Below, piece by piece: positions 38,301-43,311 of a stretch of 64,000 nt of DNA (position 1 is its first letter; each line of letters starts with the position of its first letter). The notes under the pieces are model-generated. The model ran no database searches. It saw only the letters and a list, made by a program, of their open reading frames with translations, and had not been told where the DNA came from. Location of the stretch: the NCBI GenBank assembly GCA_016212795.1, contig JACRDT010000036.1, positions 39,273-103,272 on the forward strand, in the 5' to 3' direction. The DNA is from Elusimicrobiota bacterium (GTDB taxonomy: Bacteria; Elusimicrobiota; Elusimicrobia; UBA1565; UBA9628). The position numbers were made by a program, and so were the translations under genes.

Positions 38301-40833
38301 GGAAATAGGTCGTGGCCACGCCCGAGGCGGGCGCGCCCGGCACGATAGGCGAATCAACGCCGTTGAGAGAGATCGTAGTGCCGGTCCCTATCGCCACCAC
38401 GCCCGACTGAGGGTCGGCATACTGAATTCCTGTGTAGACGACCTCGGTCCGCGGCGGGAAATCGTCCACATTGGCCGGAAACGCCAGCATGAACCTGGAC
38501 AAATGGCTCACCGCTCCAGTCACCGTATGCTGCGCTTCATCCACGGACACGGTCACGTCCTCCACCCCGCCGCCCTCCGGGAAATGGAGCAGCCGCAGCT
38601 CGGTCGGGTTGCGTCCGCCCAGCGCGTCTGGATTGTAGTTCGCGGTGATGGTCACCGGCCCAGCATAGGTCTCCTTGGCCGTGATATCCCATGCCGAAGC
38701 AGGCAGATGGGTCTTGTAGCCTGGCGGAGCGCCCATCGGCGCCCAGTCAACATACACGGGAATGCTCGCCGATACGTACAATGGCTCGCCCAGGAGGTTC
38801 TCCCCGGCGGGCGGGGCGGCAAGCGGCGGAGTGTCGCAGTGATATAGCTTGACCTCATACTTGCCGGGCGTAGTGGTTGACTCCCACGTGTTCAACCACA
38901 CACTTGGGTCGGAGTGCTGGTCGAACACGAAGTCCCGGACCTCCATCCCCAAGGAGTTCACGGCAACAGCCATCGGCCCAAGAGAGAAGCCCGTCGTGAC
39001 CGGCCCGAGCGGAGCGACAAAGTTGTTGGGTTGCATATATGATCCAAAATCGCCAGCCAGCCAATTGTCCACGCTGTGGATGCCTGACCCCGATGCCGTG
39101 TCCTCGGCCGTCCCGCTGATGGTATAGAGCATCTGGGAAAAAGGAATCGCGCTCTGGCCCAGTTTGCATCGGCACAACGGGCTATCAAGGCCAAGACTTA
39201 CACAGGGCACGGAATGCCAATTGGTGGGGACAGGATCTAATACCACATCGGACAGACGCGCGGCAGGCGAGACCAAGTCCACCTGGAAATAGGCCGTCGT
39301 GGCACGGCCCAAGACGTCCTTGGCCACTGCTACGCGAAGCCCCTCTTTGCCCGCGAAAAAGGGAACCTGCGCGAAGCCCGTGTCCCCGGCAAGACTGACC
39401 GGACCGGCCCCGGCCGCGAAGCTGTCATCATCGTAGACCGCCAGCGACGCCAAGGGCGCGTGCGACTGGACCGTGAAACAGCTGTGCGTGCTGAGCACGA
39501 TGACGGGGCTGGGGGTGTTGGCCCCTCGAATCGTCGTCCGCTGGCCCGTATCGGCATACTCCCCACAGCGGCCTCGCTGAATCGTCAGATTGAGGGGGTG
39601 GACGACGGAGACAGTAACAGACGCGTCCCGCCCGCCTGCTCCATCCGTTCCAGAGGAATCCTCATATTGACTGAAGCCAGCTGTCGCATCGTTCCATGTC
39701 GCGATAGTCTGCGGTTTGCCATCGAGTTGATTGCTGGAATCCGAATAATTGAGCCCTCCGACAGATAGCGCAATGCTGCCTTCGAGCGAGGCAGAAGCTA
39801 TTTGGGTCGCTGTCAGGGTCCCGACCCACACGGTATTCGTGTCGTCCAGGAAACTGCCAGCGAGTGGCACTTCAGCGCCGCTTGGTCCAACTGCCTTTGC
39901 GTCTACCGAATCCATAGACTCATTGAATTCCAAAGTGAAGCCAATGTCCTCGTCACCACTGGCCGGATTATCTGCAAGGATCGAAAGACTCCTAGTCCCC
40001 GACCCAGTGTCCTCAAATTGAGACTGATGAATGACTCTTGTGCCCTGGCGGCCAGTCGCCTTCTTCTTGAAAGGCACCGTTCGAATCATGTGAAAATAAT
40101 GTGCCTTAGCGTAACTGCCCGTTCGAGCGAGATAGTCTGTCAGCGGCGCGTGGTAGGCCGGGAGCGTGTGGGTATCCACCTTGGACTGTGGTCCCGAGTC
40201 GGCCGTCACAATGAGCGAATGATTGGAGTGGTCGGGCCTAACACCCTCCAGGAGCACCACATCTCCAAGCGCAAGAACAGCTGGGATTGTTGCGGTCGGG
40301 ATGACGCCACTGTCGTCCTTTTTGCCAAGGAAATATTGCGCATGGAACGATTTGATTAAGAATTCCTTCAGCGGGACTACTGGGACATCCGTTCCTGCGC
40401 TCGCCCACGTCCCATTAACTCCTCCACACTTAATACCTTTTACCAACAACATGGGGTCATCGCATATGACCTCGTTGCCATTGGAGAATCTTCTCCCCGC
40501 CAAAGCCTGATACGACGAGTTTGCGATGAACTGCTCCAGGTCGGTGCCAAGGCCACCAGCAACTAGACACTGCGACACATAATTGGCGCAATCGCCACCG
40601 AGTTGAAAATAGAAGCTGCCATAACTGTTGTAGTAGAAGCTCCTCGGTGGGTCCAAGATGTTGTCCCACGTGTTGAATCTGTCATCATGTCCACAATGGC
40701 CGGGCAGCCCACACCAATCGTCCGCGTAGCTCGCTGCTGCGCCTGAGTCATAGCTCCCCGCGAAGGCTGGACCAATACCACCGAACGTAACCAGCGTCAA
40801 AAGCACAGCCGCCCTTGAGTGCTTTGAGTGCAT
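32392..40833 (-). CDS. Giant secreted protein (2813 aa): Amidase_6-like N-terminal domain, Ig-like domains, 4 OmpL47-type repeats, beta-propeller, 11 IPT/TIG repeats, ZU5-like domain, T9SS type-A-like CTD
   Basis: Signal peptide; GGDCANYVSQCLVAGG...H.LIVT...HT; P.SGPIG.PFTI.G..FG repeats; C-terminus YAFPNP...KIFDSSG...GSGVY...KKLAIIK. Confidence 0.85.
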   Translation of the reverse strand: MHSKHSRAAVLLTLVTFGGIGPAFAGSYDSGAAASYADDWCGLPGHCGHDDRFNTWDNILDPPRSFYYNSYGSFYFQLGGDCANYVSQCLVAGGLGTDLEQFIANSSYQALAGRRFSNGNEVICDDPMLLVKGIKCGGVNGTWASAGTDVPVVPLKEFLIKSFHAQYFLGKKDDSGVIPTATIPAVLALGDVVLLEGVRPDHSNHSLIVTADSGPQSKVDTHTLPAYHAPLTDYLARTGSYAKAHYFHMIRTVPFKKKATGRQGTRVIHQSQFEDTGSGTRSLSILADNPASGDEDIGFTLEFNESMDSVDAKAVGPSGAEVPLAGSFLDDTNTVWVGTLTATQIASASLEGSIALSVGGLNYSDSSNQLDGKPQTIATWNDATAGFSQYEDSSGTDGAGGRDASVTVSVVHPLNLTIQRGRCGEYADTGQRTTIRGANTPSPVIVLSTHSCFTVQSHAPLASLAVYDDDSFAAGAGPVSLAGDTGFAQVPFFAGKEGLRVAVAKDVLGRATTAYFQVDLVSPAARLSDVVLDPVPTNWHSVPCVSLGLDSPLCRCKLGQSAIPFSQMLYTISGTAEDTASGSGIHSVDNWLAGDFGSYMQPNNFVAPLGPVTTGFSLGPMAVAVNSLGMEVRDFVFDQHSDPSVWLNTWESTTTPGKYEVKLYHCDTPPLAAPPAGENLLGEPLYVSASIPVYVDWAPMGAPPGYKTHLPASAWDITAKETYAGPVTITANYNPDALGGRNPTELRLLHFPEGGGVEDVTVSVDEAQHTVTGAVSHLSRFMLAFPANVDDFPPRTEVVYTGIQYADPQSGVVAIGTGTTISLNGVDSPIVPGAPASGVATTYFLIDQVFVDMNATPPQVFTVPFTLPFGSHTIVYFSEDNAGNRELEKTAAVAVLNPDVTPPRTNIVFEGYSNVLPDESVVLSTSTRIALSAFDPGAPDAMTSPVDKTYFLVDRAFVDFSETPPQVYTASFTLALGTHSLAYFSQDKAGNLEAPRISSMTVFNPDTTAPQTQLVFEGFSSAQPDGYVHIATGTRAYFVAVDSAVPDALTAGLATTYFLLDQPFTNMADTPPEVFTSSFPLAFGGHSITYFSQDQAGNLEASHVASITVLNADTTPPQTQIVFEGYSSTQPAGAVRITTYTQISFAAADPEVPDALTSGLDKTVYAVGEDPPQDFTGAFTLPFGTHTVTYFSQDKALNLETPKAALLEVVDLNISTQPPSEPGSGYALSADAAGNLWAVVRFDSGYKLAKFGPGGAGLASVELPGVGGWGDWSVSFDASGNAYAIGSGINTATGGNTVAIYKTAASGDVLLSSAGFMSAYGKNDYAMDSAGDIWITGAVQTSGPPDFSGPVEFSLALWKFSPADGLLTLTTTYTRGAGLDMGYGIRLDGQGNIWLAGYSINPGAAGPNIIDLGAWKYDWTGTGLARQPVFLPGYASDPMGQFTAKVAVSSDAAYVAGNHATAGGGYDLSFAKLDLQGNVVLEKTWAVDGGGNSFPWGMARDASGSILVAGSTKDKLAVWRYGANGALISAQTIEGVDGAKDIAVKGSEIWLSVSNSSAPLRFTGGTALAGSEVLLSSQATAPSVALNPTAGPIGVPFTITGTGFGAYNGSNTRVKFGTVSAALSVWNNTTISGTVPGLSTGSYAVAVERQHPSSATAVAAGLFAVTALELWSMAPSSGPIGAPFTIRGPSFGPYNGANTRVLIGATTAPLSLWNETTISGTVPGLAAGQNAVRIERQSGSMVSASNSVEFLVTVPQVGSLTPSSGPIGAPFTITGTSFGPYSGANTRVLIGGTTAPLSLWNDTTISGTIPGLSPGIVPVLVERAAAGGLVSSNTSYFEVTLPSVASISPSSGPIGVVFTLIGTSFGPYNGANTQVLIGTSTAALSLWNDTTIKGAVPGTLGPGPYPVVVRRKSADGGVVETAPVFFHVAGLYLASISPSSGPIGAPFTITGMDFDSYGGANTRVLFNGTTSALSLWTDTQIKGTVPALDAGVYDVLVERQSGTGVARSNSALFTVGAPQAEGISPTAGPIGVPFTIAGTGFGPYNGANTRVLIGGTTAPLSLWSDTTISGTIPGLSPGIVPVMVERLTSDGGSVQANGFSFEVLALEALALSPSSGPIGVPFTITGRNFGPYNGSYTRVLIGATTAALSLWNDTTITGAIPGLSPGIAPVIVERAASDGGLAQVQLGNFQVTVPEIASLTPSSGPIGAPFTITGTSFGSYNGANTRVLIGGTTAALSLWNDSKITGRAPNLAAGTHSLVLQRESGGTIIASTALDFTVVSPEALGVEPSSGPIGMPFTITGSGFGPYDGANTRVKIGGLNAPLSLWNDTAIKGAVPGGLATGSHSVRVERASSDGGLATSDAGTFQVLRPEIYSVTPASAPIGDGFTIAGAGFGPYNGVNTRVLIGGTTAPLSLWNDATIKGKLPYMSAGTYAVVVERAGSDGGLVRSNEGSIQVVRPVISTITPAVALQGTPFELTGTGFGQYAGTATRVLIGGATTSLSLWNDTRIRGLVPDTLPDALYAVVVQRDALGGTVTSEPVYFIVDPPGSIAAPAAPAWFGEAALVVSTETGGKVAAPSRASVDVPPAALDEEVVISVSRPKDADDESKREKAAKAQPIAKAGEPVEFGPEGTRFNYLVTVELPFDQRMIPPGKGPDDVVLHYWNKGRGEWEPLETDVDPVKGRVRALTNHFSVYQAMVTGVLPEAVALSDFEMREVYAFPNPARKGESPTIRVQVGWANSVEVKIFDSSGRKVHAAGFGYPSVMDDGNGKDDQYTYDYRWDAGGVGSGVYTYVVTAKRVGQSDITIIKKLAIIK
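33200..36090 (-). repeat. 11 tandem IPT/TIG domain repeats (about 87-89 aa each)
   Basis: Counted 11 units with consensus PSSGPIGxPFTITGxxFGPYNGANTRVLIGxTTAxLSLWNDTTI. Confidence 0.9.
37200..38467 (-). repeat. 4 tandem ~100-aa OmpL47-type beta-sandwich repeats
   Basis: D.tPPxTxiVfeG...TYFL.D...F.LpfGsHtixYFSxDxAGNxE repeated four times. Confidence 0.8.

Positions 40834-43311: not shown

Follow-up and report, generated by a model that had tools for sequence, protein, structure and literature searches.

A tail-head cassette exchanged across a gene junction in Elusimicrobiota: a candidate polymorphic effector-immunity module in inverted order

A 64,000-nt stretch of DNA from an Elusimicrobiota bacterium, referred to here as the window, carries an operon in which a lipoprotein gene is followed by the gene of a giant surface protein and then by that of a PorV-like outer-membrane barrel. 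We found that the segment 39604-41729, which spans the junction of the first two genes, is a two-part exchangeable cassette. It is made up of the C-terminal tail of the lipoprotein together with the enzymatic head and the immunoglobulin (Ig)-like neck of the giant protein, and these parts are inherited and exchanged together. We suggest, with a probability of roughly 0.6, that the cassette has a toxin-immunity function, the head being an effector that degrades the cell envelope and the tail its cognate immunity or inhibitor domain. The results support the view that the locus keeps the logic of polymorphic effector-immunity systems but inverts their geometry, departing from the usual C-terminal toxin followed by a downstream immunity gene. 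The features on which the argument is built are listed below.

41730..43311, minus strand: conserved lipoprotein scaffold, with a signal peptide and lipobox (LAGC), a CarboxypepD_reg-like beta domain, and a helical domain resembling Zn-phospholipase C (PLC) and P1 nuclease
41614..41729, minus strand: Gly/Asn-rich linker (PGDGGNGKDKP...), the last stretch before scaffold homology is lost in the alignment
40840..41613, minus strand: variable tail, a HEAT/ARM-like alpha-solenoid of about 260 aa, assigned from homologues, a profile, an AlphaFold2 (AF2) model and Foldseek
40831..40850, minus strand: gene junction, AGGTGGGG, with a Shine-Dalgarno sequence within the last codons of the lipoprotein, from reading of the sequence and its read-through translation
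40054..40833, minus strand: signal peptide (residues 1-25) and Amidase_6 head of the giant (PF12671; Cys82, His205, His222)
39604..40053, minus strand: Ig-like neck, giant residues about 260-410, within the low-GC block; residue 410 marks the cassette's lower boundary
32713..39603, minus strand: stalk, with Ig/OmpL47-like repeats, a beta-propeller-like region, at least 11 IPT/TIG domains and a domain preceding the C-terminal domain (CTD)
32392..32712, minus strand: sorting CTD like those in type IX secretion systems (T9SS), with the stop codon, matched by the CTD ends of NF052323 and PorZ

All the relevant genes are on the minus strand. The open reading frame (ORF) of the lipoprotein has 878 codons (40837-43473, minus strand), and its true start is Met55, at 43311 (MKTCFLSILAVACLCLAGC, lipobox LAGC), which is also where the public gene call, P0003 (824 aa), begins. 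The ORF of the giant (32392-40833, minus strand) encodes 2813 aa. At the junction, the TAG of the lipoprotein (40837-40839) and the ATG of the giant (40831-40833) are separated by the single codon ACC. Both reading frames are intact, in one operon. The two genes share a frame, and read-through of the stop would yield a hypothetical fusion of about 3640 aa from Met55.

The boundaries of the cassette are the positions at which homology between loci stops. The scaffold of the lipoprotein, about 500 aa, has 40-62% identity to its homologues in an alignment of 8 sequences, and every homologue matches just the first 55-60% of the lipoprotein; past the Gly/Asn-rich linker, the sequences are unrelated. 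DNA homology between the window and L010, its nearest scaffold relative, extends from 43322 to 41729 and then ends, and where the tails of different loci match, the match covers no more than their initial 40-70 residues, the linker. We propose that the linker is the upstream recombination boundary. The downstream boundary is given by G030, which belongs to the same taxonomic order but to another family. There, a secreted tail homologue of 329 aa (P0010; 26% identity over the whole window tail, E = 1e-15) is encoded directly ahead of a giant of >4200 aa, whose residues 1-410 are 44% identical to the window head (E = 2e-108). The homology of the heads ends at residue 410, which is 39604 in the window. 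The same pair is seen in L029, from another sample, where the gene of a 288-aa HEAT_2 protein (830-1696) that matches the tail (E = 2e-15) runs into the start of the gene for a giant of 3262 aa. The latter is homologous to the giant of the window along its full length, with 51% identity in the head and 42-49% in the stalk. The tail homologues of G030 and L029 are separate genes with a signal peptide, each overlapping the beginning of its giant, and all the partners carry export signals. Related necks are found behind other heads, as shown by neck-only matches after an Amidase_3 head (G075) and an M14 head (G006).

Searched against 1.84 billion proteins, a profile of the scaffold recovered just 22 representatives with E<1e-30. 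Each scaffold gene is directly followed by a giant gene, and the head differs between loci, while the giants become homologous again past their first 250-600 residues. At least eight head types were found, including Amidase_3 in G075; those of the window and the scaffold loci are as follows.

Amidase_6 head: the window
Zn-PLC-like head, HLxxDxxxPxHAxN: L007, L010 and L016, with a mature N-terminal Trp in 2/3
M14 carboxypeptidase head: L011
M23 head: L012, L014 and L033
NlpC/P60 head: L017
Head of no known family, with invariant His and Cys: L005, L030 and L031
Second head type without a known family: L013

In a PDB search, the only matches of the Zn-PLC-like heads were to Bacillus cereus phospholipase C, at E of about 0.01. 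The His/Cys head had no match in a PDB sequence search or in Pfam; it may resemble clan-CD peptidases, judging by its SHGG...SC[DN]S pattern. The tails across the scaffold family are also of several types, namely HEAT repeats, propeller- or NHL-like beta domains and a TPR-like domain, and several belong to no family. A query of the word-indexed protein database with the window tail alone gave no match and missed even the known homologue P0010; the window's tail-head pair was located elsewhere by whole-genome search and by search with the head region.

Two side observations concern individual heads. In L017, from a 44%-GC Elusimicrobiales metagenome-assembled genome (MAG), the gene after the scaffold (6000-7784) encodes only about 590 aa, in which an NlpC/P60 head is followed by Ig-like domains and then, at the C-terminus, by HEAT-like repeats. 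Neither a long stalk nor a CTD was seen in this gene, and a second gene, starting at 8235, has the look of a cysteine peptidase. L031 (2890-3483) and L032 (2756-3271), both contigs of the Joint Genome Institute, have the same lipoprotein (P0024) and 97%-identical heads; the head ORF of L032 stops after 171 aa, the cause being a frameshift, a variant stop or an error in the assembly.

Tails and heads co-vary. Comparison of 18 loci (153 pairs) gave 11 pairs with homologous tails and 14 with homologous heads, 10 of them in common. The Fisher p-value for this overlap is 7e-12, which overstates the case, as the locus pairs are not independent, and 0/100000 label permutations reached the observed value. 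The real evidence for co-variation is the existence of five separate head classes, each with its own partner class: Amidase_6, M14, Zn-PLC-like, His/Cys and, the weakest, M23. For the M14 head, the same partner family is fused to the scaffold in L011 and free-standing in G006 (E = 1e-21). The three PLC-like heads have HEAT tails that are homologous to one another. Furthermore, a prediction of heads from their tails proved correct in one prospective test. The tails of P0023 and P0024 resemble that of G037, and the heads encoded downstream of them match the G037 head, with E from 1e-13 to 1e-35.

Exchange of the cassette between conserved flanks is seen directly in two pairs of loci. The DNA of L011 and L013 is 87.6% identical over 1227 nt of scaffold and 78% identical over the linker; there is then no homology across the 2.3-2.6 kb of tail and head, and similarity resumes in the stalk at 72%. 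L030 and L033 have 86% DNA identity over 1625 nt of scaffold, up to the junction, followed by unrelated tails and unrelated heads (His/Cys and M23, respectively), and their giants align again from residues 417 and 349. In the scaffold tree, four strongly supported sister pairs carry different cassettes, and constraining the PLC, His/Cys or M23 loci to a single clade is rejected by the approximately unbiased (AU) test with p ≤2e-4. A preliminary description of this DNA had supposed that the immunity-like and effector parts co-vary, that they are swapped together between conserved scaffolds, and that their order is reversed. Co-variation is borne out by the 10 of 11 tail-homologous pairs that are also head-homologous and by the recurrence of the window pair in G030 and L029, and joint swapping by the unrelated cassettes that L011/L013 and L030/L033 carry in homologous flanks. 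The homologues do not all share one N-terminal domain, having Amidase_6, Zn-PLC-like, M14, M23, NlpC/P60, Amidase_3, His/Cys and other heads, and the co-varying partner does lie upstream of the variable N-terminus of the giant, the C-terminus being the conserved CTD. The supposed module needs refinement on two points: the giant contributes 410 residues to the exchange, its Ig-like neck along with the enzyme, and the partner can have a gene of its own.

These comparisons also bear on the idea that the locus is a housekeeping system for envelope remodelling, in which the giant would be a maintenance enzyme of the wall or surface layer, the lipoprotein its regulator, and the variation ordinary divergence between lineages. 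Lipoprotein regulators of peptidoglycan hydrolases are common in diderms, and NlpI-MepS, EnvC/NlpD-amidase and Lpo-PBP are pairs to which this one might be likened. Furthermore, the heads include peptidoglycan-hydrolase families, and several loci have a response-regulator gene upstream. However, scaffold DNA that is 86-88% identical carries different classes of enzyme, and the cassette classes are polyphyletic on the scaffold tree. The scaffold is present in 3/41 relatives, so that the locus is missing from 38/41 related genomes, and the family is very rare. In every locus, the third-position GC content (GC3) departs from what is typical of the host genome, the PLC-like and His/Cys heads are not wall-remodelling enzymes, and an enzyme at the tip of a C-terminally anchored stalk of 2800 residues points away from the producer's own wall. 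The housekeeping explanation thus fits poorly, and we consider it improbable.

The cassette is also distinct in base composition. The segment 39700-41600 has 54.4% GC, as compared to 69.3% for the genome and 61.1% for the surrounding island (31000-43500). The rest of the giant gene has 62.8% GC and the scaffold part of the lipoprotein 61.5%. Of the 20453 genome windows of 1900 bp, only 15 (0.07%) have a GC content this low or lower. The 300-bp profile is at 0.51-0.58 from about 39600 to 41550 and at 0.60-0.66 on either side, within the island. In windows of 100 codons, the GC3 of the lipoprotein is 0.76-0.85 for residues 1-550 and 0.50-0.56 for residues 551-800 (numbered from Met55), and that of the giant is 0.53-0.63 for residues 1-450 and 0.71-0.79 beyond. 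The third-position GC changes as a step rather than a drift, and the steps coincide with the homology breakpoints at 41729 and 39604. Since GC3 shows the same fall, amino-acid composition is ruled out as the cause of the dip. About 12 scaffold-family loci were checked, and in all of them GC3 goes down over the tail and head and comes back up in the stalk. Among the loci with free-standing partners, G006 shows the same drop, and it is weaker in G030 and L029. The baseline for these statements was raw GC percentiles together with GC3 within the operon; GC3 of ORFs genome-wide was set aside, being bimodal (standard deviation 0.156) with coding and non-coding frames mixed.

The low-GC dip that the preliminary description had placed at 39700-41600, from hand counts of lines, therefore survives sliding-window GC and GC3 analysis, and lies near the cassette of 39604-41729 defined by homology. 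Its counts for flanking lines (63% and 67%) were correct in direction and slightly above the 300-bp values of 0.58-0.65. Could the dip nevertheless be an artefact, either a chimeric join in the MAG or a local relaxation of codon bias at a gene junction? The genome is a MAG of 50 contigs that is 89.9% complete, and the block has no flanking repeats; a search for such repeats as recombination sites returned only short ones, at chance level. However, the same tail-head block is present in independent assemblies from other samples (G030 and L029), the GC3 dip is specific in position across about 12 loci of the family, its edges coincide with the homology breakpoints, and both frames are intact in one operon. 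An artefact is largely refuted by these results, and we give it hardly any credence.

What are the two parts of the cassette? The Amidase_6 profile (PF12671) spans residues 28-238 of the giant at E from 6e-12 to 1e-13, with 46.4-51.9 bits against a cut-off of 23.2, in agreement with the amidase that had been recognized by eye at this N-terminus. Cys82, His205 and His222 are invariant in 4 homologues. From the sequence, the head is predicted to be a secreted papain-like cysteine amidase of the NlpC/P60-CHAP superfamily. The AF2 model, which is of moderate quality (pLDDT 64.8, pTM 0.72; AF2's confidence scores), would place the Cys at the N-terminus of a long helix, with a beta sheet after it. 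Foldseek gave weak matches of the head to B. subtilis YjcM, Ssp1/Ssp2, Tae3, Tae4, CHAP endolysins and an NlpC/P60-type amidase, and a PDB sequence search with the head gave chance matches only. A phage origin of the head was considered and discarded, with no match in 50,697 phage records.

The tail has HEAT-type helical repeats. By itself, the window tail scores 25.6 bits with HEAT_2 (PF13646), under the cut-off of 27.7, but a profile of three tails matches alphaRep and HEAT chains in the PDB at up to E = 6e-31. The AF2 model predicts a solenoid of 13 helices (pLDDT 80.8, pTM 0.77), and its Foldseek matches are ARM/HEAT binding proteins. Thus, the HEAT-repeat C-terminus first read from the letters, a weak single match, is made firm by the three-sequence profile and the all-helical solenoid of the model. 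The tail, we propose, binds or inhibits its cognate head. The scaffold to which it is joined has a PLC-like domain whose metal-ligand motif is degenerate in the clade of the window (GHVLRLLTNLSIPKY; 42000-42450). A distant clade, L016-L018, keeps HLLEDxxxPxH, a motif that looks catalytically intact. The PLC-like profile region of the scaffold also matches the N-termini of >200 large proteins.

What is the function of the cassette? Most of the identified heads belong to cell-wall hydrolase families, namely Amidase_6, Amidase_3, M23, NlpC/P60 and probably M14, and to these is added the Zn-PLC-like head. The same enzyme classes are found among the periplasm-acting effectors of type VI secretion systems (T6SSs). 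The partners have folds that are binding scaffolds, HEAT/ARM and propeller-like, and these are specific for the head class. HEAT-repeat immunity proteins (Imm-HEAT) are a recognized class (PMC3482391). The locus is patchy in distribution and compositionally foreign. Furthermore, there are intact partner genes with no adjacent head. In G006 (L028, C23) there are two partner paralogues, at 973-1845 and 3677-4690, which are 61-63% identical, and just one of them abuts the M14-headed giant. In G408 (L050, C158), an intact 304-aa homologue of the window tail is encoded at 3962-4873 beside a RAYT-like transposase, and a neck fragment alone is left of the giant, on the opposite strand. These observations argue for an effector and its immunity domain. 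Physical binding, inhibition, other bacteria as the target and display at the surface are what we infer from them.

Several points weigh against a toxin-immunity function. A classical immunity gene is downstream of its toxin, and an upstream cognate gene also fits secretion chaperones and adaptors. An immunity role leaves the conserved scaffold of 500 aa unexplained, and the PLC-like motif of the distant clade looks intact. Nor does such a role account for the way in which an amidase tethered at the cell surface would get to the peptidoglycan of diderm targets. The model of the head is just moderate (pLDDT 64.8), with weak structural matches (best E 1e-3, TM score ≤0.38). The M23 class is weak at the level of the tail (E = 5e-4 for L014/L033, and undetected for L012). 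The loci are for the most part short contigs from metagenomes, and several of these probably come from a single study, which makes the pairs non-independent, and the groups constrained in the tree were named after the tree was seen.

The main rival follows from the first of these points. The tail might be a cognate periplasmic chaperone, an export adaptor or a docking partner instead of an inhibitor, and the heads might still be weapons or digestive enzymes. In this case, the tail would recognize the head and keep it competent for secretion, or tether the tip of the giant to the lipoprotein, and each head type would need its own adaptor. The partner is upstream and translationally coupled, like the adaptor genes of T6SSs, and co-variation is equally expected. 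That the tail is fused to a lipoprotein that is large and conserved points to a role in structure or positioning, and solenoids and propellers are generic binding scaffolds. However, there is already a general route of export, by a CTD and a PorV-like barrel, and about a dozen further large proteins of this genome use it while lacking a partner of this sort. A chaperone also leaves unexplained the intact partner genes without an adjacent head in G006 and G408, and nearly all the heads are hydrolases that would be dangerous in the producer's own periplasm. We therefore regard a chaperone, adaptor or docking role as rather unlikely, though it deserves more weight than a housekeeping role.

The proposed mechanism for the effector and its immunity domain is as follows. 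The export and anchoring signal of the giant would be its C-terminal T9SS-like CTD, served by a dedicated PorV-like barrel, and this would put the amidase head at the far end of the 2800-residue stalk of Ig, propeller and IPT domains. The HEAT-like solenoid would bind its particular head and, in the window, is joined through the Gly/Asn-rich linker to a conserved lipoprotein predicted to be exported to the periplasm. The solenoid would keep the head inactive in the producer's envelope, both during transit of the giant through the periplasm and against the heads of sister cells. PLC-like heads may additionally need a free N-terminal Trp. New pairs of head and partner would enter jointly by recombination in the conserved flanks, in the scaffold and linker upstream and in the neck and stalk downstream, and this would account for their shared low GC3 and for the discordance with the scaffold tree. 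The order of the two parts is probably reversed relative to classical polymorphic toxins because the sorting signal is at the C-terminus. Since the giant would be exported, and probably anchored, through the CTD and the PorV-like barrel, only its N-terminus would be free to vary.

One close comparison is with polymorphic toxin systems such as CdiA, Rhs and MafB (Zhang et al. 2012, PMC3482391). They too have a large secreted multi-domain protein with a repetitive stalk, and a terminal enzymatic domain that recombination exchanges along with the cognate protein linked to it; atypical composition and spare cognate copies are further likenesses. In both, alternative enzymatic domains are found on a conserved stalk, and each family has its own partner family, a likeness that here concerns co-variation only. 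Imm-HEAT and NlpC/P60-type toxin domains are both known classes of polymorphic-toxin systems (PMC3482391). The differences are in geometry. Polymorphic toxins vary at the extreme C-terminus, whereas here the variable part is residues 1-410, at the N-terminus. Their immunity gene follows the toxin, whereas here the partner precedes, often fused to a conserved lipoprotein, and the gene downstream is PorV-like. The locus also lacks a known pre-toxin motif (VENN, PxxxxDPxGL), and the boundary is instead a Gly/Asn-rich linker. Searches of the literature yielded no account of polymorphic heads at the N-terminus whose partners are upstream or fused.

The periplasm-acting effector pairs of T6SSs (Tae-Tai, Tle-Tli, Tge-Tgi) are alike in their enzymes, which are papain-like amidases, metallopeptidases and phospholipases aimed at the envelope. 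In each pair, the enzyme is occluded by its cognate binder, which is exported or a lipoprotein. The fold of the window head matches Ssp1/Ssp2, Tae3 and Tae4, but weakly (E ≥0.03, TM score ≤0.38). In contrast to these pairs, the effector here would be the tip of a Sec-exported, CTD-bearing giant and not an injected cargo. A scan of the operon proteins and of neighbouring ORFs gave no VgrG-, Hcp- or PAAR-type domain; the genome was not searched for T6SS genes. The TANFOR toxins of Bacteroidetes (PMC7073777) are alike in being large Sec-exported polymorphic proteins with a proposed exit by T9SS and a role in interbacterial competition. They differ in keeping the classical order, with a conserved N-terminal domain, a C-terminal toxin and downstream immunity, and the TANFOR domain is absent from the giant.

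N-terminal enzymes are also found in bacteriolysins such as lysostaphin and zoocin A, which have an N-terminal peptidoglycan hydrolase, C-terminal targeting or anchoring domains, and protection from a linked gene. MliC/PliC and Ivy are periplasmic or lipoprotein inhibitors that bind the active site of a hydrolase. In bacteriolysins, unlike here, immunity is a modification of the wall by Fem-like enzymes and not a cognate binder, and neither bacteriolysins nor these inhibitors have the cassette exchange, the giant stalk or the fusion of protector and scaffold.

More broadly, and with odds that we put a little short of even, Elusimicrobia and perhaps other phyla with CTD/PorV export would possess an unrecognized device for contact-dependent antagonism or predation. 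It would consist of C-terminally anchored giant fibres bearing exchangeable envelope-lysing heads at the N-terminus, with an upstream cognate immunity domain that is often grafted onto a dedicated lipoprotein. If so, the logic of polymorphic toxins would be independent of orientation and flip when the secretion signal is C-terminal, and T9SS-like export would gain a role in bacterial warfare. Genome mining by the rule that a variable C-terminal domain is followed by an immunity gene would miss such loci, in which the binder is hidden inside another gene. The loci provide five or more testable pairs of enzyme and putative binder from an uncultured phylum, including two head types without a known family. 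In addition, they would supply natural binders, solenoids and propellers, with specificity for peptidoglycan hydrolases and for a PLC-like enzyme. Finally, they suggest what the numerous giant CTD proteins of these genomes that have private PorV-like barrels may do.

Candidate parts of the export apparatus on which the mechanism depends are found in the genome (G000), some of them divergent. The CTD of the giant matches the CTD end of NF052323 at E = 6e-11 and PorZ at E = 1.6e-5, while TIGR04183 scores 17.2 bits against a cut-off of 23. In the stalk, TIG is found in 11 stretches (E = 3e-111) and an OmpL47-type barrel profile matches at E = 3e-21. With the PorV family PF19572, the third gene of the operon scores 29 bits (E = 1e-6; the cut-off is 27). 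The same genome has about 14 more PorV-like paralogues, 26-48% identical to that of the window, nearly all of them directly after a large ORF of 1000-7343 aa.

31448..32395, minus strand: PorV-like outer-membrane beta-barrel gene, third in the operon, overlapping the stop of the giant (PF19572)
C25:15858-18081, C5:911-1807, C48:58692-59561, C12:62569-63282 and C12:127683-128654 (G000): sites of PorV-like paralogues
C42 (3 sites), C44 (2 sites), C30, C41 and C33 (G000): further sites of PorV-like paralogues

The general arrangement looks like one big cargo with one private PorV. The heads of the other PorV-linked large proteins that we inspected look like those of ordinary surface proteins, for example S8-protease-like and Kelch-like as judged by eye. 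An ORF of 1868 aa resembling SprA (G000:C33:77262-82865; L034, L035) matches TIGR04189 in three collinear stretches, each under the curated cut-off, with a best E of 1.7e-19. A search of the genome for the PorU sortase gave hits only at the level of the CTD. The divergent SprA-like ORF, with PorU undetected, suggests from sequence comparison a reduced or divergent T9SS-like export route in this Elusimicrobia genome. This is similar to the T9SS cargo and PorV shuttle of Bacteroidota in the N-terminal Sec signal, the N-terminal functional domain and the putative C-terminal beta-sandwich sorting domain of the cargo, as well as in the PorV-family barrel and a candidate SprA-like giant barrel. It differs in the phylum, in that each large cargo has its own adjacent PorV-like gene, in the undetected PorU, and in CTD and SprA matches below curated cut-offs. 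Nothing connecting PorV to Elusimicrobia was found in a search of the literature.

The genome of the window was searched for a second lipoprotein scaffold, a second head and a second tail, and none was found. The contig C13 (G000:C13:160-3234) opens within a run of IPT repeats and has a copy of the pre-CTD region of the giant (210 aa) with 96% identity; a CTD query had no match on C13. This copy is either a second, paralogous giant gene broken by the assembly or a strain variant. The operon of the window is flanked by cinA on one side and by rpsO-pnp on the other. In L007, L008, L009, L011 and L012, a response-regulator gene (Response_reg and Trans_reg_C) is just upstream of the scaffold lipoprotein; the window is without it, and cinA is the neighbour there.

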